Below, in pieces: positions 1,319 to 59,951 of a stretch of 64,000 bases of DNA (the stretch's first letter is position 1; the number at the start of each line of letters is the position of its first letter). The notes under the pieces were generated by a model that saw only the letters and a list, made by a program, of their open reading frames with translations, searched no databases and was not told where the DNA came from. Origin of the DNA: a virus; IMG/VR virus record IMGVR_UViG_3300045988_127310. The stretch is one strand, 5' to 3'. The position numbers and the translations under genes are program-made.

Positions 1319-3577
1319 ATGGGTGTCAAATGTCAGATAGAAAAAAAGGAAAATGAAATAAAACGGGTTAAGGCTCCTAACGGGGAGCCTTCCGTCCTTT
1401 ACGAAAGTGCTTTAAAAGTATTAGGAAACAGCGAGCGGGCTCTTCAGGTATGGGCTAAGGCTTACACTCCTGGTTTTTTGTCGTATTACGGTCATTGGAA
1501 TAACCCGGCTCCAGGGGAGATGTTTAACACCGATCCCAATGACGAACCTCTTTTAGAAGATGTGCTGTCGTATATGAAGCGTCAGACTTATTTTGCTGAT
1601 CCTTTAACGGCTCAGGATGTTAAGGATGTAAGGGATTTCCTTTTGTCTACTCATTATTTTTTCAATGCGTCTTCATTGTCTAATGCTATTCTCTTCGATT
1701 TTTATGTAGATGGCAGTTTGATACTGAATGAGCAGAAATTAAGGAGATCCGGTTTGTATGATGAAACAGAAATAAGTCGTATTTTATCCGATCCTTCTGT
1801 TTTAAACGAGGTTTCGACTTCCATGAGAAAGTTAATAGATTCTTCTATTAACGAACATGATAGGGAAAAGGATAATTATTTTATGTCTGTTGACTATCAG
1901 TATGGTCCTGTTGTTTACAAGGAGGGAGTGTTTAACCAATTTGGTAAAAAAGTACCATATAATCCTTCTGAGCTTTATTGGGCTATGGGCAAAACAGTAG
2001 CCGGCATAAAAAACTTTTCTGAATTTTCATCTGCTTTTGAATCGTTGAGAAATTCATATCCTGAACTGGTTGAGAAATTCGTTTCTGATAAAGAATTTGC
2101 CGAATCTATGTTTGATGAGTTCTCATCTACGAATAAGATTCCGGTAATAAACATAGAAGGGGATGATGTGGTAGAAGGCAAGAGAAGATCCTTGTCTAAG
2201 CTACAAGATCTGTCTTATTACAATCCTGGCAAAATAGAGTTCCTAAGAGCTCGTATATCGGCTTATTTACATAGGGCTAATGCCGACACCGAATCCGATT
2301 TAAGAAGCATGATATGGGATATAGAAGAGGCTTGTACGTGGTTTGGCATAGATATAATAGGGACATCGGAAACTTATGATGGCACAGAAGAATCTTTGAA
2401 TAAGATAGATAATTTGATGCTGGATCTTGATATTTATGTGGCCAGGCATAATGATGTAAATTATGCTCCAACGCTGGCATCTTCTATAGATGATGTTCTT
2501 GGTGATAGCACAGATTATTATTCTGAATTATTGCCGGAGTATATGGATAATTTGAATATCGTTTATTCTGAATCCGATATAGACCCAGTAGAGGCATTTG
2601 AGAAACATTCATTGCTTAAGGTAGGAGATAATCTATATCAAAGGATCAGCAAAGATGATATTAACGAGATGTATCAAATATCAACAGTGTTAGCCAAGCA
2701 CAACCTAACTCATTTTTCTACTAAAATATATCCTGAATCTTGTTTTAAGAACGGCGTTTTGGATAAAGAGAAAGTACGGAACGTAGATAATAATACGCTC
2801 ATGGATTCCATTAAAAAATACGTCAGATCGTTCATGGATTCTCAGAACACGGAGGACATGATAATGACCAGGATGGCGTTTGGTCACCCGGCGGTACTTG
2901 ACGTTCCTTACGTGGATGTGGATCGGGAGTATAGTCGATACATGAACAAAAAACAAGATAGCGAAAACCCATTATCCTTATTCGATTTATACCAATCTTA
3001 CCTTGACAACAAACTCCATAAAACAAAATTATATGATAATGCCCATAAGTATCTTGACTTCAAACCTGGTCCATCTTTGGGCCTTATTTCTGATGATCCT
3101 GATATTTTGAAATCAATAGAATTATCTTTATCTGGAAAAGACAGGTTGATGTTGTTTGATTATAGCATGACCAGTACCGACCCTTCTTTATCAGAATTGT
3201 TTTATTTGGAGAAGTATGACCCTTCGTATGCCGGGAATGATTTTGAACACTATTTTTACACCAGGCACCCGTATTTGTTAAAAGAAAAATCGGGCCCTAA
3301 TATCGTAGAGCAAGATGGTGTTATAACAGCCGAAGGTATTTATGATAATTTTATAAGAGTAGGTAATAAGATATGGTCTAAAGTAAGCGAGAGTAGTTCC
3401 GGCTCTATCTACCAAAATCTGACAGGAACCGAATCAGAGGTGAAATACGATTCTACTCAGAAGGCTAAGACGGTAGAAACCGATTACGCTCCATACCAAA
3501 ACAGATCTGGCTTGACGCAAGACATGACCGTAAGCAAGCCTGAATTGGATGATCTTAATAAATTGGAATGTAGGTAA
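1319..3577 (+). CDS. large hypothetical protein (752 aa), possibly virion-associated
   Basis: Long uninterrupted ORF followed by the hairpin terminator at 3623-3653. No catalytic motif recognised. Confidence 0.6.
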   Translation: MGVKCQIEKKENEIKRVKAPNGEPSVLYESALKVLGNSERALQVWAKAYTPGFLSYYGHWNNPAPGEMFNTDPNDEPLLEDVLSYMKRQTYFADPLTAQDVKDVRDFLLSTHYFFNASSLSNAILFDFYVDGSLILNEQKLRRSGLYDETEISRILSDPSVLNEVSTSMRKLIDSSINEHDREKDNYFMSVDYQYGPVVYKEGVFNQFGKKVPYNPSELYWAMGKTVAGIKNFSEFSSAFESLRNSYPELVEKFVSDKEFAESMFDEFSSTNKIPVINIEGDDVVEGKRRSLSKLQDLSYYNPGKIEFLRARISAYLHRANADTESDLRSMIWDIEEACTWFGIDIIGTSETYDGTEESLNKIDNLMLDLDIYVARHNDVNYAPTLASSIDDVLGDSTDYYSELLPEYMDNLNIVYSESDIDPVEAFEKHSLLKVGDNLYQRISKDDINEMYQISTVLAKHNLTHFSTKIYPESCFKNGVLDKEKVRNVDNNTLMDSIKKYVRSFMDSQNTEDMIMTRMAFGHPAVLDVPYVDVDREYSRYMNKKQDSENPLSLFDLYQSYLDNKLHKTKLYDNAHKYLDFKPGPSLGLISDDPDILKSIELSLSGKDRLMLFDYSMTSTDPSLSELFYLEKYDPSYAGNDFEHYFYTRHPYLLKEKSGPNIVEQDGVITAEGIYDNFIRVGNKIWSKVSESSSGSIYQNLTGTESEVKYDSTQKAKTVETDYAPYQNRSGLTQDMTVSKPELDDLNKLECR

Positions 3578-3622
3578 TTTTTGTGTACATATATATAGTC
3601 TTTTCATAGTTATAATTTGGGA

Positions 3623-3653
3623 AGTGAGGCTTGTGAAAGTCTCACTTTTCTCA
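3623..3653 (+). terminator. rho-independent terminator-like hairpin (AGTGAG/CTCACT stem plus T-run)
   Basis: 6-bp perfect stem with 12-nt loop, followed by TTTTCTC, 46 nt after the stop of the 752-aa ORF. Confidence 0.5.
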
Positions 3654-4285
3654 TATATGCACGTATATCAATAACATACAAGAAAAGTTAGATTTTCATT
3701 GTTTATGAATTATTTTTATTAAGTTTGCAATATTAGTTTCAGGAAGGGATTATAGAAATAGGAAAAAGTAAGAACCGGACGTAACTAATAACAGTAGGAA
3801 ATGAGAATCAGTACCATCAAACGTAATAACAGCATTCATCTTATGTATAAAAACATTATGAATGATTTAGGTCAATTAAGAACTGTAGTTTCAAAATCCT
3901 ATATTTATAATCTGATACAAAATCAAACCGGATTAAGTATCAGAACTATATCCCATGTCTTGAATCATACAAAAGAACAGGATACAGATTCTTTGCGAAA
4001 GGCATACATTTTCATATATTTGTGTGTTCTTTAGTTTTTAGATTTAAGTTTTTCATGGTATTAGTTTAGATTAGTATAGATCAGGGTTCGCAGTGATGCG
4101 GGCCCTGGTTTGATTTAAAAAGTATTAAAATATTTGCTATTTAAAATCCTGTTCCTATCTTTGCTCCAGAAACAATGAACAACGAGATCCCACCTCTGGT
4201 TGTTTGATGTTGAAAGATATTTTTGGCTCATTAGGGTTTGTCATAGTGGGATCTGACATTCTCTTTTGGGCCTATTTTTTTTATC

Positions 4286-4852
4286 ATGGATAAAGTTTCT
4301 GTTTTTGAAAGTTCGGATTTTGGAGAGCTTAGAATTATTGTAGATCCAAAAGGAGATGTTTGGTTTGTGGCGTCAGATGTGGCTAAATCTCTTGGATATA
4401 TAAATGCTAAAGATGCGGTAAAAAGACATGTAGATGATGATGATTCTATGCTTTTGCAAGTATCTGATAATCAATGGGGCGTAAAACGATCTATATTGAA
4501 AACCAGATATATAGATAGTATAAGAATAATTAATGAATCTGGTTTATATTCTCTTATATTATCTTCAAAATTAGAGTCTGCTAAGAGATTTAAGAAATGG
4601 GTAACATCTGAGGTTCTTCCTTCTATTCGTAAAACAGGAGAATATAAAACAAGTTCCGGTGGAAAGGGAATTTTGGTCCCTGACTTTTCTAATCCGGCAG
4701 ATGCAGCAAGAGCCTGGGCTGATCAGTATGAAGCTGCTCAGAGAGCTATAGCCGAAAAGTCGCAGGCAGAGGCAGAAGCCGGCGTTCTGATGGGACGTAC
4801 ATGGGGTACGGTGGTGGTATTTACGACCATTACGGTATGCATGAGAAGATGA
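4286..4852 (+). CDS. Bro-N (BRO family N-terminal / KilA-N-like) domain protein, antirepressor-like
   Basis: The N-terminal ~110 aa (FxFxxxELRIIVDxxGxxWFVASDVAKSLGY...AVKRHVDDDD) match the Bro-N DNA-binding domain signature. The last ~20 codons look out of frame; see the collinear ORF at 4801. Confidence 0.7.
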   Translation: MDKVSVFESSDFGELRIIVDPKGDVWFVASDVAKSLGYINAKDAVKRHVDDDDSMLLQVSDNQWGVKRSILKTRYIDSIRIINESGLYSLILSSKLESAKRFKKWVTSEVLPSIRKTGEYKTSSGGKGILVPDFSNPADAARAWADQYEAAQRAIAEKSQAEAEAGVLMGRTWGTVVVFTTITVCMRR

Positions 4853-5058
4853 AGGAAATGGAAGAACGCGAAAACGAGCTGGAAGAAAGGGAAAGAAGGC
4901 TTGAAGAGCGCGAACGTCGTCATGAAATGGAGGACCGGGAATACCGGAGGATGGGTTACGAATCCTACCCGACCGATTACTATGGAGACGACAGATACTA
5001 CGGTGACGGACCTCAGATGCGTAGAGGTCGCGGACGTGGCAGAGGTCGTTCTTATTGA
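4801..5058 (+). CDS. highly charged Glu/Arg-rich segment ending in an (RG)4 repeat; possibly a frameshifted continuation of the Bro-N gene
   Basis: Strong triplet periodicity. The frame is open from 4732, overlaps the Bro-N ORF by 52 nt in another frame, and ends at a single TGA at 5056-5058. Confidence 0.35.
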   Translation: MGYGGGIYDHYGMHEKMKEMEERENELEERERRLEERERRHEMEDREYRRMGYESYPTDYYGDDRYYGDGPQMRRGRGRGRGRSY

Positions 5059-5151
5059 GGAGCAGACGCAGAGGATCCAGCTTATCAGAAATATGTAGAT
5101 ACTTACGGCTACCATTTTTCTAATGCTCTCGCTGATGAGGCGGTAAAGAAG

Positions 5152-5445
5152 ATGGTCAACGTCGATGGATCCAAGAGGATCTGGAAGCAGCCGGAAATAA
5201 AAGATATTTTTGAAAAGTGCGGAGCGAAGAAGCCGGATAAAGCGACATGGGGCGATGTCCAATATGTCTTTGCAATGTACTATTCGGATGGTTTTCCGAA
5301 GGTCTTCAAATGTGAGAACGAGTTGGTGAAAGCTACGTTAATGTATTTGGATGATCCGGATGCTCCCGAAGGAGTAGCCTTTATAAGATGGCTTGCCGTG
5401 CAAGATTACCTCGGCGAAAAAATAAACTGGAAGGATCTGACCTGA
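5152..5445 (+). CDS. hypothetical protein; same frame as 4801..5058, separated from it only by one TGA
   Basis: Frame 1 is open from 5059 to 5445 with no stops between the TGA and the ATG at 5152. Followed by an imperfect GC hairpin plus T-run at about 5550-5590. Confidence 0.4.
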   Translation: MVNVDGSKRIWKQPEIKDIFEKCGAKKPDKATWGDVQYVFAMYYSDGFPKVFKCENELVKATLMYLDDPDAPEGVAFIRWLAVQDYLGEKINWKDLT

Positions 5446-5880
5446 GATCCAGACCCAGGTCCTTCCGGTGGTGCGGGAGCCATAGTAAAAAAAATATGAT
5501 TCCCGCATTCCCGTTTTTCCCGTTTGGAAAAAAAAGGAATAAAAATATTATACCGGTCGGCGGGCAATAGAATACCCGTGGCCGGTTTGTTTCACATAAC
5601 TTTTTTTTGACATGAATATAGCACACGAATCTAAATCGAATAAAACCCCATTGTATTTAATAGGAGAGTTGATTGGCGTACCGAATACGGTTATGGACTC
5701 AGCATTGCATGAACTGAAAGATAGAATAGACAAAGACCCTAAATATAAAGATGTTAAAAATTGGCTCGAATCTTTACCCAAGATCTGAACCTATTTTTCC
5801 CAATACCAGGCCCGATGCGATTTTAACGTATCGGGTTTTTATTTTAATTCATATTGTTTTATTTTAAATCTAATTAATTT

Positions 5881-6144
5881 ATGAATGTCGTACTTTTGTT
5901 GAAAAAGTATTTTTTTATGGAAAATAAGGAAGATTACGTTGGTTACGAAGATCAAGAACTGTGTAACCGGTATTACAAAGAGGCTGAAGCCATGAGGCAA
6001 AAGCAGGACTGGTCTCGGCTTAGGGCTGCCCCTGCTCCGGCTAAGGGAACGCCATCGCCCGGCTGGGGTCAGCTTGGACGTGGAAATGAAGTTCGTGTCA
6101 AGTACGTTAGCATCAATTCAGGATTGGGAGGGGATAGGTTATGA
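5881..6144 (+). CDS. hypothetical small protein (early-type cluster)
   Basis: First of a run of ten short rightward ORFs with 4-nt ATGA start/stop overlaps. A second in-frame ATG lies at 5917. The middle section is GC-rich. Confidence 0.4.
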   Translation: MNVVLLLKKYFFMENKEDYVGYEDQELCNRYYKEAEAMRQKQDWSRLRAAPAPAKGTPSPGWGQLGRGNEVRVKYVSINSGLGGDRL

Positions 6145-6359
6145 CTGTAGAAGAATTAGCTAATAAAAGATACGGTGGCGAATTTGTTTTCATGCTTGGT
6201 TATTTGGAAGGTGTAACAAGATTCGTTTTTGAATGTTTCGATCCCAGACCTGATCACGAAGGTAAAAATACTTATATGGCTTCCTATTTTGATAAGCGCA
6301 TCCGTAGAAGAGATGTGGTGGATGTACCGTATTATATGAATGTTTCAACGAAATCATGA
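6141..6359 (+). CDS. hypothetical small protein
   Basis: ATGA overlap with the upstream ORF (translational coupling). Confidence 0.45.
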   Translation: MTVEELANKRYGGEFVFMLGYLEGVTRFVFECFDPRPDHEGKNTYMASYFDKRIRRRDVVDVPYYMNVSTKS

Positions 6360-6559
6360 AAACACTACTTTTTAACATACCTTCTTTCTCTGGTAAGATA
6401 GTTTCTCCTACCTGGATTAAGGCCGTAAGATATTTTCAATCCAGATCGAAGGCAGAAAGAGATTCGTATTGTTCGGTTTGTGGATGTACGGGAGGGTGTA
6501 ACCTGTGCGATGATATAAGTAAATATAGGATTTCAGAACAACTAAAATATTATATATAA
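6356..6559 (+). CDS. hypothetical Cys-rich small protein
   Basis: ATGA overlap with the upstream ORF. Carries a CSVCGCTGGCNLCDD cysteine cluster. Confidence 0.45.
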   Translation: MKTLLFNIPSFSGKIVSPTWIKAVRYFQSRSKAERDSYCSVCGCTGGCNLCDDISKYRISEQLKYYI

Positions 6560-6560
6560 T

Positions 6561-7193
6561 ATGGTTAGAATCGCATATTTCGGAACCGATGGCTGCCCCG
6601 GTCATCACGTTATTCCAATACGAGGTAGATTCACAGAAGAGGATATTAAGGTAATAGAATCTGTAGATTGTGATGATTTCTATAAGGTGTTTGACGTCAT
6701 GCGTTTTAAGATAGCTGAGTTTAAAGGATGGACGATATTGGGAATCCCGGCAAGCTTAGACGATCATAGACCTGGAAGCAAAACCGTTATCTTCATAGAG
6801 GGTAAAGCTAACGAAGCTGATTTTATGGAAGTCATACAAGAGTATTCTTTTCTTAAAAATAATGTAAAGAAACTTGCCGAATTGTATCATGATGGAGAAT
6901 GGTTTGCTACTGGTAAATTGAATCAAGATCCGCCTAATAAGGAACAGTTTCAATTTGCGTTAGACAAGGATGATATTATTAACATGATTAGGGGAGTCGA
7001 TTTAGATCCTTATTCTGATGTGGCGAATGAAATGGAGAAAATCGGATTGGGATCATCATCTGATTCTTCATATGAGGGTCCCATATGGTCTTGGTTTGTT
7101 AACAAAGTAGAACTTTGGCAGAAGAATAATGTATGGGATAGTTTCTCCGCTGAGTTTTTGTGGGGTTTGTATTGTAAGATAAAGAAAGTATAA
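6561..7193 (+). CDS. hypothetical protein (210 aa)
   Basis: Starts 2 nt after the previous stop. No recognisable motif. Confidence 0.55.
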   Translation: MVRIAYFGTDGCPGHHVIPIRGRFTEEDIKVIESVDCDDFYKVFDVMRFKIAEFKGWTILGIPASLDDHRPGSKTVIFIEGKANEADFMEVIQEYSFLKNNVKKLAELYHDGEWFATGKLNQDPPNKEQFQFALDKDDIINMIRGVDLDPYSDVANEMEKIGLGSSSDSSYEGPIWSWFVNKVELWQKNNVWDSFSAEFLWGLYCKIKKV

Positions 7194-7216
7194 TAACAAC
7201 TAATTTAAAATAAATC

Positions 7217-8080
7217 ATGGAATTAAAGGATTTTAAAGATGTAATTAGAGTGATGACAAAAGAAGAGTTCGAATCAGCAATCAACGAAGATATTAAATTC
7301 GTTGAAATATTTAAGCATTTTTTTAAACATGATGATGATGCGAGGATAATAGAACACGTAAAGTCAGTGTTAGAAGCATCAGTAGATTACTTCTATCCTA
7401 ATCATCCTGAAGTAGAATTTGAAAAAGATTTTAATATACAATACGATGTCAATAAGATCTTGAACAAATACGGCCACACCGAAATGGGTCTGTATAAAAT
7501 ACAGCTCTATGTAGAGAAGATTTTGGGTAGTATTCAAAACAAGAAGCCTGTAGACGTGGGAGAAGTCTCTGACGGATACCACACTTTCAATGAATTGTAT
7601 CGGTATCGCATGTTGTATAACGCTGCCTTCTTTAATCTATTAGCCAGAAGCGGACAGGTTGAAGTTTGCAAATCAAGGAGACACAGCGACGGAGAAAAAT
7701 GCTTCGGTTCTGATGATTGGTTTATTGTGATGGCGATCCTACCTACCGGTCAGGTATCTAATCACTATGAAAGCAAATACTGGGATTTGTTTGATGTTCC
7801 TGAAAGAGAGACCGCTTTCGAATACGATGGCCATACATCAAATGAAGCTGCCGACAGACTTAAAAAGTATCTCAAACTGCCTCGTCGTGGCATGACATTC
7901 GAACAGGCTTTAGAACGGCTTAAATTAGGTAGTAAGATAAAAAGAATCGATTGGGGTAAAAAGTATATCTGTATATTTGACGTAAATATATTGATGGTAG
8001 ATACAGGTCAAAAAGTAGCATCAAATTGGAATCCAACCGAACATGATATTATGTCTAATGACTGGGAGATTGCGGGATGA
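7217..8080 (+). CDS. fusion protein with a C-terminal DUF2829/Tad2-like domain (candidate anti-Thoeris signal sponge) and an uncharacterised ~225-aa N-terminal region
   Basis: The C-terminal ~60 aa (MTFEQALERLKLGSKIKRIDWGKK...WNPTEHDIMSNDWEI) fit the M-x-F-x-E-A-L...K-x-G-x-K-[VI]-x-R-x-x-W ... W-x-P/S-x-x-D-x-x-x-x-D-W pattern I associate with DUF2829/Tad2. This is recall only, not a database hit. Confidence 0.5.
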   Translation: MELKDFKDVIRVMTKEEFESAINEDIKFVEIFKHFFKHDDDARIIEHVKSVLEASVDYFYPNHPEVEFEKDFNIQYDVNKILNKYGHTEMGLYKIQLYVEKILGSIQNKKPVDVGEVSDGYHTFNELYRYRMLYNAAFFNLLARSGQVEVCKSRRHSDGEKCFGSDDWFIVMAILPTGQVSNHYESKYWDLFDVPERETAFEYDGHTSNEAADRLKKYLKLPRRGMTFEQALERLKLGSKIKRIDWGKKYICIFDVNILMVDTGQKVASNWNPTEHDIMSNDWEIAG

Positions 8081-8352
8081 GTTTGTTTGTATGTTCAAAA
8101 TGTGGCTGTATAGATAATACAGCCACATCATATTACTGGGCTCTTATAAGACCTTGTAAGAATCGTATTTACGATAAGTCGCTAAAGGGATATGAAGGCA
8201 AGCCTCTTTGTTCTGAATGTGCCGCTATTGAATATAGTAAGGGAGGCGAAGTGGTGGTAGTTCCTGGAACGTGGCACGGTAAGTTCAAGAAAGAATGGCC
8301 TACTGAAGAAGAAAAGAAGCATATTGGTAAAAACGGTATTTTAAATTATTGA
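8077..8352 (+). CDS. zinc-ribbon small protein
   Basis: Two CxxC pairs (CSKCGC...CSEC). ATGA overlap with the upstream gene. Confidence 0.5.
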   Translation: MSLFVCSKCGCIDNTATSYYWALIRPCKNRIYDKSLKGYEGKPLCSECAAIEYSKGGEVVVVPGTWHGKFKKEWPTEEEKKHIGKNGILNY

Positions 8353-8355
8353 TTT

Positions 8356-8661
8356 ATGTGTGATAAGGAAATTGTTGTATGTGCAGCTATATGGGTTCAA
8401 GATCACAAGAACAAGCCTCACGGTCCAGTAAATATACCATCTGGAACCGTATTTTGTGGATTGAGACACTGTTCCATAATATCGCAACTTGCGGCATACG
8501 GAATAGCTCATAAAAACCGCAGTGTTCAAGGATTTTTGACAAGCAAGAATCGGTTTTTAACAAGAGAGGAAGCGTCTGAACTTGTTAGAAACAATAATCA
8601 GGAGATGGTGGTAGATAGAAATGCCATTAGAGAACAGTTGTATTCAGAAGATTTGTATTAA
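8356..8661 (+). CDS. hypothetical small protein
   Basis: Colinear ORF with no overlapping competitor. Confidence 0.5.
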   Translation: MCDKEIVVCAAIWVQDHKNKPHGPVNIPSGTVFCGLRHCSIISQLAAYGIAHKNRSVQGFLTSKNRFLTREEASELVRNNNQEMVVDRNAIREQLYSEDLY

Positions 8662-8678
8662 CTAAAAAATAAAACAAT

Positions 8679-9029
8679 ATGGGATTTATAATCAAAAAGT
8701 CAATATTTTATGATATGATGGACGGCAATCAATTAAAGTATGAATTTGACAACAGGGATTTAGATCATATCACATTTAAAGGTGATGGTAAAGAATCTTT
8801 TTCATTTAACAGAGCACTTGTTGAAAATTTAATTGAGACATTTGAAACCATGCATGATATATATTCCGATAATTACAAGCTTAAGGTTTATACTGGTAAT
8901 TGCATAATTCAATTGAGCGAAGATTCAAAGGACTTAAGTAAATCCTTTTTTGACGTATATGATAAAGATGAAATGAAAATGATATACGCAATAAATATCA
9001 GTATCTTGAAAGAAATGTTTGTCATATGA
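8679..9029 (+). CDS. hypothetical small protein
   Basis: Colinear ORF. Confidence 0.5.
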   Translation: MGFIIKKSIFYDMMDGNQLKYEFDNRDLDHITFKGDGKESFSFNRALVENLIETFETMHDIYSDNYKLKVYTGNCIIQLSEDSKDLSKSFFDVYDKDEMKMIYAINISILKEMFVI

Positions 9030-9223
9030 TCACCAAGCAAGATATACAAGCAGCAACATCGTATATTTTCCGAAGCAGTTTTGTCTCGGAGGACCAGGCA
9101 AGGAAAGCAATGGTAAGAGCCGGCAATAACGCTACCAAGAACCTCGTCAAGACCTTTAGAGGCAAGTTGTTCAAGAAAGCTTTTGAAAGAGCCCGTAGAG
9201 GAAAGGATATCAGTTTTTTTTGA
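9026..9223 (+). CDS. hypothetical basic small protein
   Basis: ATGA overlap with the upstream ORF. Lys/Arg-rich. Confidence 0.4.
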   Translation: MITKQDIQAATSYIFRSSFVSEDQARKAMVRAGNNATKNLVKTFRGKLFKKAFERARRGKDISFF

Positions 9224-9332
9224 AAGACAGGAAAAAGAAAGTGGTTTCAACTTTCTTTACAATCCTAATAATGGTCGTATGCAAAGCGGTCATATTATAA
9301 TAGATGGAATTGATCTGTTTAAACAAATAATT

Positions 9333-9503
9333 CATGAAAGGTAAAAAAGTTGATATTCGTTTAGGTAGAGGTCTGGCGAATCAGATTAAGATAAACAAAA
9401 CCATTCCAGTGTCTCATAAACCAAAAGAAGAACGTCGAATGATGTTTATTTGTGGTGATGATATTGCTTCTCTTATAAAGCGGTTTGAAAATGAATCAAA
9501 GTA
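9333..9503 (+). CDS. possible 56-aa ORF below the ORF-track size cut-off
   Basis: Runs from the ATG at 9333 to the TAA at 9501-9503. A hairpin with T-run follows at about 9508-9540. Confidence 0.25.
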
Positions 9504-9553
9504 ATATAAAGTCGGGCATGTGTCTTGTCTGACTTTTTTTATATATTTGTGGC

Positions 9554-9877
9554 ATGGCAAGAGGTTATTATTGGATACCGCAGACAGATGAAACGTTAAA
9601 TGGCAGAAGCTATTACGTGGCTAAGATAGTAGGGGATATCACGTTTGATACTAAACGAAAAAGAATCGTATTTCAAGCTGATAGGTATTTCCCTGTAGGA
9701 TCTGTTTTCCATTTTACGCACAATTGCTTCAATTATATCATAACTTGCCGACTTCGTAAGCCGGGGCTTTGGTTTGAAGCCAGGAGAGAGGATTCGGGCC
9801 CTATTTGCCCTGAAGATATTGAGCGCTTTGAATCGGGAAGGTTTATACACCGAGATGGGTACATGCATTACATATAA
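9554..9877 (+). CDS. hypothetical protein (107 aa)
   Basis: ORF followed by a strong terminator. Confidence 0.5.
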   Translation: MARGYYWIPQTDETLNGRSYYVAKIVGDITFDTKRKRIVFQADRYFPVGSVFHFTHNCFNYIITCRLRKPGLWFEARREDSGPICPEDIERFESGRFIHRDGYMHYI

Positions 9878-9929
9878 GCTGAACTTGACGATTTTTCGTC
9901 AGATTATAATTTTTTTTCATATCATTTTT

Positions 9930-9968
9930 AAGCCATCAGACTTAGGAGTTAGATGGCTTTATTTTTTA
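9930..9968 (+). terminator. rho-independent terminator (AAGCCATC/GATGGCTT stem plus T-run)
   Basis: 8-bp perfect stem and 14-nt loop, followed by TTTATTTTTTAT. Confidence 0.6.
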
Positions 9969-9988
9969 TGATATGCTTGATTTTTAAC

Positions 9989-9996
9989 TACCTTTG
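9989..9996 (+). promoter_or_regulatory. Bacteroidetes-type -7 promoter element TAccTTTG upstream of the giant ORF
   Basis: Matches the TAnnTTTG -7 consensus of Bacteroides sigma-AB promoters, 24 nt before the ATG at 10020. No exact TTTG -33 partner was seen. Confidence 0.25.
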
Positions 9997-10019
9997 TCTC
10001 ATAACAAAAATGTTTTATC

Positions 10020-13000
10020 ATGGTATCAACGTGTATTATTAAAAGAGATAATAAAAAGAAAGTTGTTTCTGTCTCTACCAGATCAGGGGACAGGTCTATG
10101 TTGTTTGATAAAATAGCATCTGTTCCTCTTATGGAGAACAGGGAGCGGGCTACTACTGTTTTTAAAACCGTATTTTCCAACAAGTTCTTAAAGGCTTTTG
10201 GCGACTGGAGAAAGAGAGTGCCTATCAACAAACAGGCTTATAATAAGGTAAAATCCAACATCGATCTTATCCCAGAAGCCTATAGAGAAAGGGTGCTGGA
10301 TAAGGCTTCTAAGATGAGTAATCCTGTTCTTGTATCAAAATCAGATGCAACTTATGGGATTCAAGAATCAGGCTTCGGATTCTATAGCCAAGATCTGGGT
10401 GATAATATTATGTTGGTGGATGCTATGATCCCATCAAGTATTTCCGTACCGGAAGAACCAGGAATAGACGCCGGGCAGTATTTACAAGATGCTATATTTT
10501 CGGACTTCACTCCCGTATCTGTGGTACAGGATAAGGGTGTTAATTATATGGTTATAAAAGACGGTCTTAAGATATTTAGCCCAGAAGAGCTACCAGAAAC
10601 AGATTCTAATCCTGTGGGTGTAACGTATCAGACTGGAGAGCCTCGTTTGTTTTTCATGAACGATCGTAGTCAATTATTTGAAGATTACGGAGAAGCTCTT
10701 CGCTCTGGCGGGAATGATATCAGAATAGGGTTCTTATCAGGCACCGTTCAAGAATCTACCGTGGATGGCGTGGCAGACATTACTTACAAAGCTGGAAAGT
10801 ATGTTCTTAATAATCCCAAATCTTTTATACCGGTCATGACCGCTTCTGCTTCTACTTCTTTATCAACAAAAGGTGGTATAATTAACTACCTTATAAAGAA
10901 AGGTCTTTTGTCCGGATCTAAGATATTCGATCCTGAAACAAGAAGCTATTATCTTACAGGAGAAGGTCATACAGGACAAATTAGACTTTTCAATTCAGCC
11001 TTATCATACACCGAGCTCCGTAATCATTTTGGTTCCGATGTTTCCATGAACGACCAAGGTATGATAACCATAAGCTCGTTGGATAACAGTAAGGTAACTA
11101 TGAGACTCGCCACCGGAGGAACGGAAAGGATTAGTAGGGAACAGATAAAGAACGATCTTAAGTCAGGAAGATACAATGAATTGGACGCCAAGTACGATCA
11201 TTTTGATGCGCTTGTAGTTTCATTCATATTAGAAGATAACGATCTTTATGCTGATACTAAAGCTAAGATCGTATCAGATTATAGCAGGCAGGAACGTGAC
11301 CAACGAAATTCTATTGTCGAGATACTGAAAACGCTTGGCGTTAGTGTCATAGGTATGACCGACTATATAGAGAAGTACCAAACCAAATACGGGCACGAAC
11401 CTTCTGCTAAGGCATTGGCGGATATTGCTAATAACGTAATAGCAGTTGGTGAAGATGCTACTTTATCTGATTTAGTAGAAGAAACAGCCCACTTTCTTGT
11501 AGAGGCATACAGAGATCAGAATGCTGTTGAGGCTGTTCTGCAAGATGTAGAAGGTACGGAAGAGTGGAACCAGTATGCAGGTCAGTATTATAATACATAC
11601 GGTAAAGCGTATGAAGGAGCTGAGCTTGATAATGCTGTTAGGAGAGAAATTCTTGGAAAGATCCTCGCCAGGGAGATGCAGGCCGGCACAGCACAGGCGC
11701 CGGTAGAGCCCACCTCCTTCCTGGGGCGCGTCCGGCAGCTTTTCTCTGGAATCGTAAGCTGGCTTAAATCAGCTTTATCAACCCAAAGACAAGATTTGAA
11801 TAACGTTATTAAAAACATTCGTGATCTTGCCATTACTGACATAGATAAAGGATTTGACACCTCTCTGTTAAAGGATAATGACTTTACATTATACTCCCTT
11901 TCTTCTATGAACAAGAACAAGTTTCTTGAGTCTAAGATCAGATCACTAAGAAAAACATTAAGAGACTTACGTCAGATAAGCTCTGATAGGGCTGTAACTA
12001 CGTCTATGACCCTTGCGCAGCTTAAGACCATAGAAGATAAGATAAATAAGGTAGAGACCGAAATAGACAAGAATGAGATGGCGGCTGCCATGAACAGCAT
12101 GATCTCCACAGCCGAAGCTCAGGTCAGATACTTAAGCAATGTGGTGAACACCATCCTTCATGGTGATACCAAAGACGGCAAGCTTCACTTCAACACCAAT
12201 GATCGAAAGAACGTAGATATTATCAACAATCAGGTTCTTCCGATCATGAACGATCTTCGAGGATATATCCGTAACAGAAGTACCGAATTTGATGAACGTG
12301 AAAAGCAGGATTATACAAATAGGATCAACACCGTCATTGCCGACATCAATGGTATTCAGTCTGATATTAAATCAGTACAAGACCTTGATGAAAGTACGTT
12401 GCTTGATAAGTTAATGAACGAACTTCATGTGCCGGCAGATAAGGTAAAGAGAGTAAAAGAATTTTTCGACAAGGTTCAACACGATGTTTCTTGGATAAGT
12501 AGGTGGTTTGGTATATTAGAGCATTCTTCCAGTCCGTTCAATAACGCTCTTGGAGCTATGATTGCCAAAGACAATTACAATGCGATGGTGAATGCCCAGC
12601 CCGCCATATCCGATTTCCTGGCATATGCGAAAAAGCATGGTTTTAACAAATCTGAATTTGAAAAACTGCTTCAGAAAGTAGACGGCAAAACTTCTAATTA
12701 CCTTCGTAGTGCTCTTGATATGGCTAAATACGATCGTAATAAGAAGCTGGCGCAGATGCGAGCGTTTGCGACTGCCATGAACATAGAGATATCAGAAGAA
12801 GAAATTGGTGATGTGGTTGACAATAACCGTAATTACGTATTTAAAAGAGAAGTAGTTGACAAGGATGGAAATACGGTTACTGAAAACGCTAAATTCAAAC
12901 CATCGTCTGATAGGGTTAATACCGATATTTTTACCATCGAGCAGGAAAAGATCTATACGGAACAGATGGAAAAGTGGGATGCTGAAAATTCGGAACTGGA

Positions 13001-16000
13001 ATTTAGTGAAAGTTATGCCACAAGAATGGAATCCATATACAAAAAGGCTGAAGAAGAATTAGGGCATCCAGTTTCTCAAACAACCAAAGAATACCTTAAT
13101 GCTCTATCCAGGCAAAAACGGATACTGAGGCAGCCTTTTATTGATAGCGGTGGTAATTTTGATGAAGTTGCCTATTTTAAAAGCAGCAATTACGAAGAAG
13201 AAGGACTGCTTCGTAAACAACGTAAAGAAGCAGCTTCAGAATACATATATGTAGGAACCAGGAGAGTGGAAAAAACCGGCGACCAACTTAAGATGGCCAA
13301 AGAAATACAAGCTATAAATGAAGTTTGGAGAAAGGAATCAAATAATGTTACTAATGCCGTATCAGAATCGTTTTTGCAAAAATTGAGAGCGATTCAGAGC
13401 GAATCAGGAGGGGAAGCTGCATTGAGAACGCTTATGTTGGGTGGTCACCTGTCATTCAACGATCGGTTTTGGAATGATATAGAATCGGAACAGTCAGCGC
13501 GCACCGAATCAAATAACAAGGCTTCGTATCTCAAAATGGCGCATGATATCATTAGTTCTACGACAAGCGATAGAGATGCGACTGACGTGGATTCTATTGT
13601 GAAAGATATAGAAAAAAATAAGGCTATTATCAAGGAAATAATCGGAAACAATCGCGATGTGGCTGATATCGGAGAAATTAACGAAGCAACATTTACCTCA
13701 TCCGAAAGAGATGCTTTTAGGGCCGCATCTGAAGCTATTGAAGCCGATTACGCTATTTTGATAGATTATGCTAAGATGGTGGGTCTTGAAGATATTGATA
13801 AGTACCTTACTAAAAGCAATAAGGCTGAAAACGAAGTAAATCAGTCTTATTTAAATGCTCTTGCTGACTCCAAGGAAGTGGAATGGAAGTTCGTACAACG
13901 TCATACTACGGCGAAGAAAGCAAAAAGGATTCAGGCTTTAAGGGATAAGCTGTTTAAGGCTGCTGATAACCGATATCTGTTTACCGTATCTGAAACCAAC
14001 TACCTGTCAGAAAAGCTTGGTATAAGCAAAGAATTAGACGGTAGAGATTTTAGGAATGCTGTTAATGCTAAGATGGCCAGCTTGTTTTTAAATAATACAA
14101 GAGAAGAGGGTATAGAAGCTGACATAAAAGCGGGCATAGAAGAGGCCAATGCTATTGTTAATGAATTTGCCAGGAGCCAGGTCTTTTCGTACTATAAACG
14201 CATGGCGCCTACTGGATATGCGGCTATGATCGACAAAATCGGTCGAGGTGAGATAGATGTGGCGCAGATGGTTAAGGACGTACAAAACGGTACATCCACC
14301 CAAGATTATGGCATGGATATATCGTACCTTTCTTTCGATCCTGCAAGGGCATGGGTGGCTGAATCTGAAGCCGAAAATAGCGGCCGTAATCCTGATTATG
14401 TAAAAGATCATGGGTATGGTCATCGAATGCCTAAGAAAAGCCTGTATCGTGATGAATCGTATTTCAATGACTTTGGCATCAAGTATGATGTTGACGGTAA
14501 TGAGGTTGCTACTAAAAATGTAGAGCAGTGGAATATGATTCAAAAACTCAAGGAAATAAAAAGACAATCCCTTGATCTATACAAAGAGCAGAGCCCGAAC
14601 CTGTATGCTATTCCACAGATATCAAAACAAGACATAGAACGTATAGAAGGATTGGGTATTAACTTCAAAAATACGGTTCGTAATTTTGTATCAGATCTGT
14701 GCCTGGACAGAGTAGACGATTCTCTATATGGTAAGACCAGGCAAGGAGAAGTGTATGACCCGGAAGACAGACTTAGGTCTATACCTAAATACTACATATA
14801 TGAGTTGGAGAACCAAGATGATGTATCTCACGATTTTGGCTACTCTTATTCGATGCTTATGATGCAGTCATCGTTATACAACGAAAAGCAGAAGTCTATA
14901 GAGCTCGCTCAAGGACTGGAACAGATGTTACTGAACAAGCAATTTGAAGGCGGTAAGAAGGCTGAAGCAACCCAAGCATATCAGATGTTCAGAGACTTCT
15001 TCAACGATCATTATTATGGCATTAGGATGAACACCAAAAGACTTACGGTGAACATCGGAGGATATACGGTAGACCTTACAAGAATTATGATGGCTGTTGA
15101 AAGATTTATGTCGGTCATGAACTTGGCACTGTCTCCGTTTGTGGCAGCTACCGGCGCCTTAACAGGTCATATCAACCTCATCATGGAATCTGCCGTAGGA
15201 CAGTATATAAGCAAAGACTCCCTTAAATACGCATCGGCTGAATTTTCACGCCTTGCTCCATCTTGTATAGCAGAAACCGGAGACATAGATAGGAAAAGTA
15301 AATTATATGTCATAGGTGAGAGAATGGGGATATTCAATATCCGAAATCGTATGTATGGTGCCGGATACAATAGAGCGGCCAGGACCTTAATGCGTTCGCC
15401 TATGTATGCTTTTATGGAAATCCTGAACTACCCTCTTGATCCGCAGGTTATGATTGCTACTATGGACAATGTTCGTTATTACAAAGGCCGGTTCTACACG
15501 CTCCAAGATTTCAAGATGGAAAAAGAACGCAATAAAGAACAGAGTACCATAAAAAGAGAATGGAACGCATTAAAAGATCGTACTTTATGGAGTATGGTAG
15601 ACGTCGTGGATGGGAAGGTGGTTGTAAAGCCCGGATCAGGTGTTACTGTTGAGGAAGTTGAAACCCAGATGGCTATAACCAGGAATCAAGTCCGTAGCTT
15701 GTCGCAGATATGTAACGGATCTTTGAATGAAGAAAACCGAACTGCTGCATCGCGCAACTGGATAGCCAGGTTCATGACCGCCCACCGAGGATGGTTGGTG
15801 CTGGCGGCTCAACGTCTGTGGAAAAGACGTGGCTTCAATTTCCAGACAATGCAAGAAGAGGAAGGGTTGTCAATTACGTTAAAGAATATGATAGCCAAAA
15901 CATTTAGCCTGGCTTCCGAGTCTGGTATGAAAAACATCATAGATGCCTGGAATGAAAATAAAGACAATATGAATGAGGTAGAAAAAACCAATCTCAAACG

Positions 16001-16466
16001 TCTCAGTGTCTATGCCGGCACGTTCCTTATCATGCAGGCCGTATCTATGCTTCTTGCCGGATGGCGTGATGATGATGAAAACGAAGAAAGTTGGCTTACT
16101 CAATTCGGATCCTATGTCGGATTCAGAACCATAAACGAAATAGCTTCACAGATGCCGTTTATTATGGAGCTTAACGTGGTAGATATCATTAACGATCCGT
16201 TTGTTATGGGGCGGAAACTGAAGGATCTTACCGATCTTAGGAATTATTCACTTGATAAAGTAACATCCGGCACATACAAAGGAGAGTCTAAGTTATTTAG
16301 GCAACTCGCCAAACAGACGTTTATCAAACAATGGTATAATATCAAGACGCCGGAAGACGTAGCGTGCGCTTATAATTGGTGGCAGCAGACGAACAACAAG
16401 TCAATGATGTTCTTCATCGGCGCCACTCCTGATTCGGAAGGTGATGAGGATACAAGCTACAAATAG
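10020..16466 (+). CDS. giant protein (2148 aa) with long coiled-coil stretches and a C-terminal hydrophobic helix; tape-measure-like or ejected-cargo-like; function unassigned
   Basis: Single uninterrupted ORF bracketed by terminators. It has coiled-coil-like heptad segments and a C-terminal hydrophobic helix (VYAGTFLIMQAVSMLLAGW). No polymerase, terminase or portal motif was recognised. Confidence 0.75.
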   Translation: MVSTCIIKRDNKKKVVSVSTRSGDRSMLFDKIASVPLMENRERATTVFKTVFSNKFLKAFGDWRKRVPINKQAYNKVKSNIDLIPEAYRERVLDKASKMSNPVLVSKSDATYGIQESGFGFYSQDLGDNIMLVDAMIPSSISVPEEPGIDAGQYLQDAIFSDFTPVSVVQDKGVNYMVIKDGLKIFSPEELPETDSNPVGVTYQTGEPRLFFMNDRSQLFEDYGEALRSGGNDIRIGFLSGTVQESTVDGVADITYKAGKYVLNNPKSFIPVMTASASTSLSTKGGIINYLIKKGLLSGSKIFDPETRSYYLTGEGHTGQIRLFNSALSYTELRNHFGSDVSMNDQGMITISSLDNSKVTMRLATGGTERISREQIKNDLKSGRYNELDAKYDHFDALVVSFILEDNDLYADTKAKIVSDYSRQERDQRNSIVEILKTLGVSVIGMTDYIEKYQTKYGHEPSAKALADIANNVIAVGEDATLSDLVEETAHFLVEAYRDQNAVEAVLQDVEGTEEWNQYAGQYYNTYGKAYEGAELDNAVRREILGKILAREMQAGTAQAPVEPTSFLGRVRQLFSGIVSWLKSALSTQRQDLNNVIKNIRDLAITDIDKGFDTSLLKDNDFTLYSLSSMNKNKFLESKIRSLRKTLRDLRQISSDRAVTTSMTLAQLKTIEDKINKVETEIDKNEMAAAMNSMISTAEAQVRYLSNVVNTILHGDTKDGKLHFNTNDRKNVDIINNQVLPIMNDLRGYIRNRSTEFDEREKQDYTNRINTVIADINGIQSDIKSVQDLDESTLLDKLMNELHVPADKVKRVKEFFDKVQHDVSWISRWFGILEHSSSPFNNALGAMIAKDNYNAMVNAQPAISDFLAYAKKHGFNKSEFEKLLQKVDGKTSNYLRSALDMAKYDRNKKLAQMRAFATAMNIEISEEEIGDVVDNNRNYVFKREVVDKDGNTVTENAKFKPSSDRVNTDIFTIEQEKIYTEQMEKWDAENSELEFSESYATRMESIYKKAEEELGHPVSQTTKEYLNALSRQKRILRQPFIDSGGNFDEVAYFKSSNYEEEGLLRKQRKEAASEYIYVGTRRVEKTGDQLKMAKEIQAINEVWRKESNNVTNAVSESFLQKLRAIQSESGGEAALRTLMLGGHLSFNDRFWNDIESEQSARTESNNKASYLKMAHDIISSTTSDRDATDVDSIVKDIEKNKAIIKEIIGNNRDVADIGEINEATFTSSERDAFRAASEAIEADYAILIDYAKMVGLEDIDKYLTKSNKAENEVNQSYLNALADSKEVEWKFVQRHTTAKKAKRIQALRDKLFKAADNRYLFTVSETNYLSEKLGISKELDGRDFRNAVNAKMASLFLNNTREEGIEADIKAGIEEANAIVNEFARSQVFSYYKRMAPTGYAAMIDKIGRGEIDVAQMVKDVQNGTSTQDYGMDISYLSFDPARAWVAESEAENSGRNPDYVKDHGYGHRMPKKSLYRDESYFNDFGIKYDVDGNEVATKNVEQWNMIQKLKEIKRQSLDLYKEQSPNLYAIPQISKQDIERIEGLGINFKNTVRNFVSDLCLDRVDDSLYGKTRQGEVYDPEDRLRSIPKYYIYELENQDDVSHDFGYSYSMLMMQSSLYNEKQKSIELAQGLEQMLLNKQFEGGKKAEATQAYQMFRDFFNDHYYGIRMNTKRLTVNIGGYTVDLTRIMMAVERFMSVMNLALSPFVAATGALTGHINLIMESAVGQYISKDSLKYASAEFSRLAPSCIAETGDIDRKSKLYVIGERMGIFNIRNRMYGAGYNRAARTLMRSPMYAFMEILNYPLDPQVMIATMDNVRYYKGRFYTLQDFKMEKERNKEQSTIKREWNALKDRTLWSMVDVVDGKVVVKPGSGVTVEEVETQMAITRNQVRSLSQICNGSLNEENRTAASRNWIARFMTAHRGWLVLAAQRLWKRRGFNFQTMQEEEGLSITLKNMIAKTFSLASESGMKNIIDAWNENKDNMNEVEKTNLKRLSVYAGTFLIMQAVSMLLAGWRDDDENEESWLTQFGSYVGFRTINEIASQMPFIMELNVVDIINDPFVMGRKLKDLTDLRNYSLDKVTSGTYKGESKLFRQLAKQTFIKQWYNIKTPEDVACAYNWWQQTNNKSMMFFIGATPDSEGDEDTSYK

Positions 16467-53139: not shown

Positions 53140-53406
53140 TTAATTGTTTAACTTACCTTTATCATATGACATTCTCTTTTCGTATTTTTCAATACGTTCG
53201 GTTATCATATCGCAGAAGACTTGCCCCTCTTTTTCGGAACCTCTGAAGTAACCAACCATCTTCAGAATATTTCCGTCAAATTCATGGACAAACTTGTTAT
53301 AATAATGCTCACCCATTACCCGTCCGTATTTTTCTACGAACAAATCCTTGTCCAGTGATTCATCCTTAAAGCAACGATTGTAATCCCATCTTGCTTTTAT
53401 GCTCAT
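53140..53406 (-). CDS. hypothetical protein (88 aa)
   Basis: Colinear ORF. Confidence 0.45.
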   Translation of the reverse strand: MSIKARWDYNRCFKDESLDKDLFVEKYGRVMGEHYYNKFVHEFDGNILKMVGYFRGSEKEGQVFCDMITERIEKYEKRMSYDKGKLNN

Positions 53407-53795
53407 AGTTTTATTAATCTACAGTTACTATCTTCAAATACCGGAACCTTCCCTTGTTCTCTAAAATAAGCAGTGGCCACCTTGAAAGCATAAAGCGGAT
53501 TTACTTTCTGGATTTCTCGTTGTGATTTATAGAAAGATAACGGCTTACATACATAGAAATTTTCATTGCCAAGACTCCCAAAAAGCCAATCCATACTACC
53601 TTCATCACAATTAGTGCCACCCAGTATTATTAAATCACATCCGGTCTTTCGGGTTCCAAGAATAAACATCTTATTCTTGTTTTTCGGTTGCATAAATATT
53701 TCCTTGTCGATTTTAAACCAGTCACTCTGGCAACTCTCCACATCCCGGCGAACGATTTCGTCGATTTCATGGGCATATTCTTCTTGTGTTTTCAT
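53403..53795 (-). CDS. hypothetical protein (130 aa)
   Basis: 4-nt overlap with the downstream gene. Confidence 0.5.
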   Translation of the reverse strand: MKTQEEYAHEIDEIVRRDVESCQSDWFKIDKEIFMQPKNKNKMFILGTRKTGCDLIILGGTNCDEGSMDWLFGSLGNENFYVCKPLSFYKSQREIQKVNPLYAFKVATAYFREQGKVPVFEDSNCRLIKL

Positions 53796-59924: not shown

Positions 59925-59951
59925 GCACCACTACTGCCTTATGTTTAACAA

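Follow-up and report, generated by a model that had tools for sequence, protein, structure and literature searches.

The question raised by positions 5,881 to 9,877 of a viral DNA record (IMGVR_UViG_3300045988_127310 of IMG/VR) is what a tightly packed cluster of small co-directional genes contributes to the phage that carries it. The window analyzed here is a stretch of 64,000 nucleotides from that record, and coordinates refer to it unless another genome is named. The cluster was originally predicted to be an early operon and a hub of host-takeover and anti-defence proteins. We find that the region is a dispensable accessory-gene island and not assembly machinery, and that two of its genes, o5 (with a Tad2-like domain) and o6 (with a zinc ribbon), constitute a module conserved across phages. 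Counter-defence is the best-supported mechanism for this o5-o6 module and an anti-defence role is plausible for o5; for the other nine genes counter-defence is no more than a reasonable guess. The account as a whole, a dispensable island with an o5-centred counter-defence module, is put forward tentatively, with a confidence that stops just short of an even call.

The original prediction counted ten rightward open reading frames (ORFs); the coordinates hold, but eleven are present, all on the plus strand:

o1, 5881-6144, plus strand: 75 amino acids (aa) from the ATG at 5917 (87 aa if counted from 5881); a basic protein whose middle part is rich in Pro and Gly.
o2, 6141-6359, plus strand: 72 aa, ATGA-coupled to o1.
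o3, 6356-6559, plus strand: 67 aa, Cys-rich (CSVCGCTGGCNLC), ATGA-coupled to o2.
o4, 6561-7193, plus strand: 210 aa, acidic, isoelectric point (pI) 4.8.
o5, 7217-8080, plus strand: 287 aa, with a helical N-terminus (1-110), a WDGH domain (115-217) and a Tad2-like domain (226-285).
o6, 8077-8352, plus strand: 91 aa, four-Cys zinc ribbon (CxxC...CxxC), ATGA-coupled to o5.
o7, 8356-8661, plus strand: 101 aa, T4_Y16D family (PF26092, phrog_839).
o8, 8679-9029, plus strand: 116 aa, acidic, pI 4.7.
o9, 9026-9344, plus strand: a basic protein of 105 aa, split here into ORFs 9026-9223 and 9183-9344.
o10, 9334-9504, plus strand: 56 aa, basic, pI 10.1, the last gene of the first transcription unit.
o11, 9554-9877, plus strand: 107 aa, a separate and apparently monocistronic unit.

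Over 79% of its length, the stretch at 5500-10100 aligns at 96.6% identity with the human-gut phage csAssE-Sib (OR575929.1, 151 kb); our literature search found no paper on this phage. Genomes of the Epsilon group of crAss-like phages measure about 150 kb (Yutin et al., PMC7886860), and the source of the window is an epsilon-type crAss-like gut phage of about that size. The annotation of csAssE-Sib divides into two arms, a leftward replication arm and a rightward structural arm at about 17-111 kb, which encodes terminase, portal, capsid, tail fibres with a diversity-generating retroelement, and ring and muzzle proteins, and also Ro60, a tail lysozyme and several "structural proteins" of 1900-2200 aa. 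The island maps to 99.9-103 kb of csAssE-Sib, near the distal end of the structural arm, about 80 kb into it and about 8 kb from the point at which both arms converge. It is flanked upstream by genes for a 2208-aa structural protein and a 752-aa protein, and downstream by the gene for a 2148-aa protein (10020-16466) that matches the virion structural protein family phrog_37651 (2e-77) and has no Pfam domain.

How freely the cluster varies was read from two sets of loci. The first comprises 80 loci anchored on o5, with counts given for 77 or 71 of them; the second, compiled against the bias of that anchor, comprises 80 loci anchored on o11 (99-100% identity), 68 of them with both flanks. Flanks in the first set are almost invariant (about 100% identity for the DUF7841 protein, 94-99% for the N-terminus of the giant protein) and the interior genes are variable. 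Among the 68 loci of the second set, o1 and the anchor o11 are constant (68 each), and the genes o2-o10 are each missing somewhere: o8 is present in 59, o2 and o7 in 58 each, o9 in 57, o10 in 49, o5 in 46, o6 in 42, o4 in 37 and o3, the rarest member, in 17, so that about a third of these phages do without o5. In the first set, o11 is found in 77/77 loci. These 68 loci display 30 gene arrangements, all of them collinear, from a minimum of o1-o10-o11 upward, and island length ranges from 1.1 to 6.3 kb; in csAssE-Sib itself, o3 and o4 are cleanly deleted and a 10-codon remnant ORF remains. Since interior genes are lost from near-identical phages, the interior is dispensable for making phage, and an essential structural or assembly role is excluded. 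Variable content between flanks that are 94-100% identical marks the region as an accessory island.

The same data bear on the idea that the products are small virion-associated or assembly accessory proteins, such as chaperones or packaged cargo that is co-injected with the giant proteins. The island does lie between the genes for the 2208-aa and 2148-aa "structural proteins," the small basic o9 and o10 could bind DNA, and, speculatively, packaged anti-defence proteins would act before any transcription. Each interior gene is nevertheless missing in some near-identical genomes, the transcription units are insulated by terminators of their own, and, in line with the original prediction, no product matches a structural or assembly protein in Pfam, PHROG and NCBIfam scans. 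We regard this explanation as very improbable.

A second alternative is that the island is a landing pad for selfish DNA, that is, decaying junk between essential giant genes, whose variability is maintained by elements of the IS200/IS605 type (TnpB, IscB) and which is of no benefit to the phage. In about 150 loci from both sets, the only cargo absent from the window is indeed IscB (about 406 aa) and several TnpB elements. These insertions occur in 16/77 loci of the first set and are seen again in the second, at points that vary, for example inside o4, where o6 would otherwise stand, or between o7 and o8/o9. Loci that show them include L062 (an IscB at 9046-10266), L075 (a TnpB at 6757-7968), L110 (4711-5943) and L111 (3413-4636). 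The IscB carries RRXRR and HNH motifs and often replaces o6, and at least three different TnpB-type genes are involved, all in a minority of the near-identical phages; csAssE-Sib has two further TnpB genes elsewhere in its structural arm (58986-60125 and 64190-65413). Frequent deletions, in-frame chimeras and the frameshift of o9 in the window would also suit a region in decay. The singleton chimeras in the protein database are in-frame deletions between island genes in metagenomes. For this reason, fusions of the o5 N-terminus with o7, of o5 with o6, of o4 with the o5 C-terminus, and of Bro-N with o5 or o7 were rejected as signs of functional linkage: their junctions, in near-identical singletons, are deletions within the same island.

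Decay is opposed by selection on the genes themselves. The ratio of nonsynonymous to synonymous polymorphism (pN/pS) ranges from 0.11 to 0.65 for the ten testable ORFs, each compared with 2-45 distinct homologues of the same length: o1 0.14, o2 0.30, o3 0.26, o4 0.65 (a value that rests on two comparison sequences), o5 0.40, o6 0.31, o7 0.12, o8 0.44, o10 0.11 and o11 0.14, the truncated o9 being outside this set. All testable ORFs are therefore protein-coding and under purifying selection. Moreover, the genes keep a strictly collinear order from one arrangement to the next, distant phages have conserved homologues of o5, o6 and o7, and the o5-o6 coupling is kept at 46-58% protein identity. 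A landing pad without function is consequently an improbable explanation of the island.

Several details of the gene list could be settled from the relatives. The start of o1 is most likely the ATG at 5917, as the protein measures 75 aa in 76/77 relatives and is annotated at that length in csAssE-Sib. What the original prediction called a "very basic 65-aa protein" turned out to be the 5′ fragment of o9, a frameshifted gene of 105-106 aa that is full-length in 63/71 relatives. The homopolymer at 9214-9221 is T8 in the window vs. T7 in nine relatives with the same flanking sequence, and removal of one T yields a 105-aa o9 with a pI of 10.3 and the 11-nt overlap with o10 that is annotated in csAssE-Sib; the extra T may reflect an error of sequencing or assembly, or else a real and recent inactivation. 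Many loci carry an o4 of 165 aa, for which stop-codon recoding was ruled out, as a GTG start is used in those loci; GTG is the start of o4 in loci that lack o3. The most divergent member among close relatives is o8 (64-99% identity). As for the Cys-rich, zinc-ribbon-like proteins of which the prediction spoke, only o3 and o6 clearly fit the description.

All four predicted ATGA start/stop overlaps were found. Overlaps of 4 nt occur at 18/107 same-strand junctions of the window (17%), in which the median gene is 118 aa long, so the ATGA overlaps are only mildly unusual for this genome and tight packing is not special to the cluster.

A clue to what the island does is found in o5. Its predicted Tad2-like (DUF2829-like) fusion was confirmed by both Pfam and fold: residues 226-285 match PF11195 (42.5 bits against a cut-off of 25, E = 9.5e-11), the domain alone retrieves SPO1 Tad2 (3.5e-5) and HgmTad2 (5e-4) in a phmmer search of the PDB, and Foldseek superimposes the o5 model on SPO1 Tad2 and ModTad2 with probability 1.0 and TM values of 0.7-0.75. 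The domain has the Tad2 fold of an N-terminal helix, an antiparallel sheet and a short C-terminal helix, and α1, β1-β5 and α3, the elements around the gcADPR pocket, are all present in the model. In the published Tad2 structures this pocket is built from the β1-β2 and β3-β4 loops, strand β4, the β4-α3 loop and helix α3; in HgmTad2 the contacts to gcADPR are made by W21, N22, G23, W87, L88, S90, T92 and D93, and binding is lost in the mutants W21A/N22A and S90A/T92A/D93A. By HMMER alignment, these HgmTad2 residues correspond to o5 as follows:

W21 of HgmTad2: W246 of o5, kept.
N22: G247, lost.
G23: K248, lost.
W87: W271, kept.
S90: T274, a conservative change.
T92: H276, changed.
D93: D277, kept.

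The WNG motif of all solved Tad2 structures thus reads WGK in o5. Judged by its sequence, o5 is a Tad2 core with an altered phosphate-binding motif and without the cyclic-dinucleotide site; it could plausibly bind an ADP-ribose-type signal, though not with certainty, and o5 may be called a candidate binder of TIR-type ADP-ribose-derived immune signals. Outside the window, csAssE-Sib encodes a separate canonical Tad2 of 89 aa in its replication arm (13792-14061, with GWNGKG and GWLASQSD motifs), and o5 is probably not redundant with it. Two different Tad2-type domains are thus present in this phage lineage.

The remainder of o5 consists of the variable, helical N-terminus (1-110) and the WDGH domain (PF25311), which is matched by residues 115-217 with 124.6 bits against a cut-off of 27 (2e-36). 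A HMMER scan of 1.84 billion representatives with this domain alone collected 3786 clusters, and identity within the domain is 60-77% in proteins that range from 137 to 638 aa. In the 148 best representatives, D119, G120, H122, K152, S153, H156, N182, H183 and Y184 are invariant; D204, G205 and H206 are invariant in closer homologues and at least 90% conserved across the 148. No PDB entry matches WDGH by sequence or fold, and a literature search on the domain found no paper. A 2025 preprint from the Sorek laboratory (10.1101/2025.07.12.664507) showed that a domain joined to Tad2 or Acb4 may act as an immune-signal sponge in its own right, and Sequestin (PF21825) was discovered in this way. The combination of WDGH with a Tad2-like domain predominates among the relatives of o5 (most of the best 120 of 1586 matches), and a WDGH-Sequestin-Tad2 triple fusion exists. 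By this fusion logic WDGH would be a candidate sponge, a case made weak by the rarity of the fusion and by enzyme-like conservation.

That o5 and o6 belong together can be seen in other phages. WDGH-Tad2 genes 46-58% identical to o5 occur in wholly different contexts (loci L087-089, L090-091 and L105), and in L087, L090 and L105 they are followed, with the same ATGA overlap, by homologues of o6 (60-66% identity). The recurrence of this overlap in unrelated contexts means that the o5-o6 coupling is conserved and is not an accident of this genome, and it is for this pair that the translational coupling claimed for the cluster acquires real meaning. The o6 product matches phrog_11861 and has a conserved WHGKF motif. 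A widespread homologue at 52% identity (P0324, in 222 blocks of the contig collection) lies directly after a 275-aa Sequestin-Tad2 fusion (L094-096), and two other o6 homologues have no recognisable Tad2 neighbour. The C-terminal 76 aa or so of o4 (134-209) resemble a stand-alone protein of 72 aa (tblastn, 31-33% identity) that is encoded just upstream of the WDGH genes in L087, L090 and L106. In L087, L089, L090, L105 and L106, the WDGH gene repeatedly comes just after genes for DHH phosphoesterase, PNK 3′-phosphatase and dGTP diphosphohydrolase and heads a long array of ORFs of 50-120 aa, possibly a conserved neighbourhood that ties WDGH to nucleotide metabolism.

Several findings weigh against a counter-defence function of the island. 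Of the eleven products, a single one has any link to a family with validated anti-defence activity, and searches of PADLOC, Pfam, NCBIfam and the PDB are otherwise empty. In about 150 loci, neither several validated families nor exchanged alternative cargo was found: at the depth sampled, variation proceeds by loss and by insertion-sequence insertion only, among the same 11 families and with no exchange of defence-countering cargo, and PADLOC returned no match for the ten ORFs scanned, so that "hub," the word first proposed, is too strong. In o5, the phosphate-binding N22-G23 is replaced by G-K and T92 by H, and the β2-β5 insertion (HgmTad2 32-72) is reduced to a turn in both alignment and model. 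This insertion carries helix α2 (the V-dimer interface) and, in HgmTad2, the cyclic-dinucleotide pocket, and it is kept in more distant WDGH-Tad2 homologues. With the altered WNG motif and the missing insertion, canonical tetramer formation and ligand binding by o5 become uncertain. WDGH co-occurs with a Tad2-like domain in 4/148 and with Sequestin in 1/148 diverse representatives, its conservation (60-77% identity) is far above that of known sponges, and in four other contexts its gene lies directly downstream of DHH phosphoesterase, PNK 3′-phosphatase or dGTP diphosphohydrolase genes, neighbours that make a metabolic role an alternative. Guilt by fusion was set aside as a weak argument for WDGH, given the 4/148 figure. 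Finally, the pattern TAnnTTTG, by which promoter-like elements were located, is not enriched across the window (70 found vs. 71 expected); it failed as a statistical signal and is used here positionally only.

A further alternative to counter-defence is an accessory cassette for nucleotide or nucleic-acid metabolism and regulation, in which WDGH would be an enzyme, or a binder of nucleic acids or nucleotides, in the service of phage replication, and the Tad2-like fold a generic small-ligand or oligomerisation domain. The extreme conservation of WDGH looks like that of an active site or a rigid binding site, its genes adjoin those of nucleotide enzymes in the four contexts just named, most WDGH proteins have no sponge domain, and o5 has lost the WNG phosphate motif. 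However, all solved relatives of the o5 C-terminal domain are immune-signal sponges, WDGH-Sequestin-Tad2 triple fusions exist, and searches by fold and by sequence turned up no enzyme. The absence of o5 from about a third of near-identical phages is also easier to reconcile with a gene of conditional use than with one of core metabolism. We consider a metabolic cassette doubtful, while giving it some weight.

The explanation that we favour, a counter-defence island, runs as follows. Inserted between the genes of giant virion proteins, towards the far end of the structural arm, the island would be read as two self-contained transcription units, o1-o10 and o11, each with a -7-like element before it and an intrinsic terminator after it. 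Its functional centre would be a three-gene module of the o4 C-terminal domain, the WDGH-Tad2-like o5 and the zinc-ribbon o6, a set that recurs in unrelated phages, with o5 and o6 translationally coupled. The minimal Tad2-like domain of o5 may oligomerise and sequester the ADP-ribose-derived signal of TIR-domain (Thoeris-type) immunity, so that the host effector would not fire; its specificity is probably unlike that of canonical Tad2, and cyclic dinucleotides would not be bindable. WDGH and o6 might add a second activity, and o1-o3 and o7-o11 would be host-interaction or counter-defence accessory proteins. A more specific version is a speculation for which we claim little likelihood: the coupled o5-o6 pair, often preceded by a gene like the o4 C-terminus, would be an uncharacterised counter-defence module in which WDGH is a new domain, enzyme or sponge, that targets immune signals, and in which the trimmed Tad2 recognises a non-canonical TIR-derived signal. 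Placement among genes for ejected giant virion proteins could allow the products of the module to be packaged and delivered with the DNA.

The transcription units are delimited by the following features:

Terminator, 5808-5847, plus strand: hairpin 5808-5838 with a 12-bp stem and a U-run, folding energy (dG) -17.2 kcal/mol, z -4.3.
TACTTTTG, 5891-5898, plus strand: match to the Bacteroidetes-type -7 element (TAnnTTTG) by pattern search, 19 nt upstream of 5917.
Internal terminator, 9508-9545, plus strand: hairpin 9508-9536 with an 11-bp stem followed by U7, dG -14.0, z -4.8.
TATATTTG, 9542-9549, plus strand: -7-like element (TAnnTTTG) preceding o11.
Two hairpins, 9885-9968, plus strand: a weak one at 9885-9902, and 9930-9958 with a U-run, dG -13.7, z -3.3.
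TACCTTTG, 9989-9996, plus strand: promoter-like TAnnTTTG upstream of the gene for the 2148-aa virion protein.

The two terminators that were originally described as bracketing the cluster are both real hairpins with a U-run. The hairpin at 5808-5838, which none of 200 shuffled sequences matched in stability (0/200), ends the unit before the island and marks the island's left edge, and the hairpins at 9885-9968 end the o11 unit and mark the right edge, upstream of TACCTTTG. The third terminator, at 9508-9536, is just as strong (again 0/200 shuffles as stable); it lies between o10 and o11 and had been missed. By position only, TACTTTTG is a candidate promoter of the o1-o10 unit; there is no -33 TTTG at the proper spacing to it. 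The element TATATTTG ends 4 nt before the o11 ATG (9554), and if it does act as a promoter, the o11 mRNA would have next to no leader, or none. Three terminators together with TAnnTTTG at 5891, 9542 and 9989 have as their simplest reading three successive units, o1-o10, then o11 alone and then the giant gene, with promoter use suggested by position.

When would these units be expressed? According to the original prediction, they form an early host-takeover and anti-defence operon, which would be switched on as soon as the DNA has entered the cell. In favour are the small size and tight packing of the genes, most of them ORFans, and their four ATGA couplings; the homologues of o5, o6 and o7 stand in small-gene arrays near replication or nucleotide-metabolism genes or in the T4-like region of small ORFs between gp43 and gp41, which are typically early or middle; and a sponge would presumably be most useful if made early. 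The island's independent terminators also mean that its timing could differ from that of the flanking giant genes. However, small packed genes are the norm throughout this genome (the 118-aa median and 17% ATGA junctions given above) and are not diagnostic of an early operon, and the cluster lies deep in the rightward structural arm, about 80 kb in, adjoining virion-protein genes and upstream of that for the 2148-aa virion protein. Time-resolved RNA-seq exists for a single gut crAss-like phage, crAss001, in which a short operon at one end of the genome holds the early genes; the genes surrounding the giant proteins are middle or late there, and of the giant RNA polymerase (RNAP) genes gp49 and gp50 are middle and gp47 is late (PMC8375218). 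In phi14:2, the early transcripts made by the virion RNAP have no common motifs, and middle and late genes are read by host RNAP from promoters of the sigma-70-like type. Compared with crAss001 and phi14:2 only, the island has neither the position nor the promoter type of an early unit: it is internal, at 99.9-103 kb of 151 kb, and its sole promoter-like feature is the host-type -7-like element upstream. Early expression therefore remains an unsupported assumption, from which the analogy with crAss001 would lead away, and we think an immediate early operon quite unlikely.

The crAss001 genome (MH675552.1) holds a further parallel. Its gp48 (53219-53410), annotated as "shock protein C" and 63 aa long, is the founder of PF21825, now Sequestin, an anti-Thoeris sponge family; its gene is the one with which the giant RNAP operon gp50-gp49 closes at its 3′ side. 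This placement is a precedent for a sponge-family gene beside giant virion genes, and by position gp48 would belong to the middle class. The 2148-aa ORF downstream of our island is one of several giant proteins that may correspond, in the Epsilon group, to the crAss "transcription block," which is absent from Epsilon-group genomes according to Yutin et al. (PMC7886860).

The remaining products offer fewer leads. Apart from the DUF2829-like domain, none had been thought to match a nameable family, a view that no longer stands: o5 also contains WDGH (PF25311), o6 is phrog_11861, and o7 matches phrog_839 (1e-17) and belongs to PF26092 (T4_Y16D) by the precomputed annotation of cluster representatives that are 84-100% identical to it and by the gene in L092 and L093. 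Invariant in o7 are C9, A11, N26, G30, G35, R37, H38, Q58-GFLTS, F67, R70, E72 and S97-E-D, within the strongly conserved motifs CAA, GxRH, QGFLTSKNRF and SEDLY; its predicted structure is confident (pLDDT 84.6) and has no structural neighbour. Homologues of o7 (about 32-35% identity) are known from T4-like Acinetobacter phages, where they stand in the small-ORF array between gp43 and gp41, from Pasteurella phage Pm86, near its integrase, and from jumbo phages; in every case their neighbours are small accessory ORFs, and the first two placements are typical of accessory regions. A neighbouring Acb4-Tad2 fusion was looked for beside the Pm86 homologue and was not found in the 5.8 kb examined. 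Scans of the ORFs against Pfam, PHROGs, NCBIfam and PADLOC gave matches for o5, o6 and o7 only; o10 and full-length o9, scanned separately, matched no family, PDB sequence and profile searches with o4, o6, o7, o8 and o11 gave nothing significant, and family searches with o1-o4 and o8-o11 yielded no informative match.

Accessory content reaches upstream beyond the predicted limits of the cluster, into 3600-5800. A Bro-N antirepressor-like gene (4286-4852) is truncated in comparison with the 294-aa gene of csAssE-Sib, and about half of the relatives lack it or have only part of it; 3′ of it lie an Arg/Glu-rich ORF of 85 aa (4801-5058), the DUF7841 protein (5152-5445) and a 58-aa ORF (5612-5788). 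Four additional genes of csAssE-Sib (96.6-99.0 kb) have no counterpart in the window. The upstream 752-aa protein (1319-3577) comes in two allelic types (about 67-72% against 94-100% identity) among relatives whose flanking genes are otherwise near-identical, which suggests recombinational replacement of a large gene beside the island. Rfam and tRNA scans of the window found nothing.

The island offers an experimentally tractable list of subjects, among them a Tad2-like fusion with an altered ligand pocket and a zinc-ribbon partner that travels with Tad2 fusions in several lineages of phages, and the WDGH-Tad2-zinc-ribbon module is the part worth an experiment. Natural deletion variants already mark the dispensable genes, so that metagenomes supply isogenic comparisons. 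Should o5 and o6 block a TIR-type system, sponge-based evasion would extend to gut crAss-like phages, and a function would be assigned to PF25311, a widespread and highly conserved domain that has thousands of homologues; otherwise the island is an accessory block of the ordinary sort.

Compared with known phage anti-defence and accessory islands, such as anti-CRISPR loci, the SPbeta anti-Gabija locus and the hyperplastic small-ORF regions of T4, the present one is similar in its co-directional small ORFans between conserved flanks, in genes that are dispensable and vary in presence among close relatives, and in having at least one member of a validated anti-defence family. It differs in lying inside the virion-protein arm of a crAss-like phage, in a set of 11 families that has so far proved fixed, varying by loss and insertion, and in containing no marker regulator such as an Aca-like helix-turn-helix protein. 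With crAss001 gp48 it shares a small sponge-family gene directly beside giant virion RNAP or cargo genes, where the two genome arms join; gp48, in contrast, is a single 63-aa gene of another family (PF21825) in the leftward gp50-gp49 operon, and the window has no Sequestin-family gene. Likeness to the T4_Y16D family consists in the PF26092 annotation carried by o7 and its 84-100% identical relatives. Among the Tad2 sponges (SPO1 gp34.65, HgmTad2/AcrIIA7 and ModTad2), which are free-standing proteins of about 90 aa, o5 is set apart by having its domain at the end of a 287-aa protein, by the missing β2-β5 insertion and by the changes of N22-G23 to G-K and of T92 to H; it resembles them in that its C-terminal 62 residues match PF11195 above threshold, in possessing α1, the β-sheet and α3 of the gcADPR pocket, and in retaining the equivalents of W21, W87 and D93, with S90 changed to T. 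The fused sponges Acb4-Tad2 and Sequestin-Tad2 (10.1101/2025.07.12.664507) differ from o5 in their partner, which in o5 is the uncharacterised WDGH, much more conserved than known sponges and fused to sponge domains in a small minority of cases; like them, o5 joins a Tad2-like domain to another phage-specific domain.

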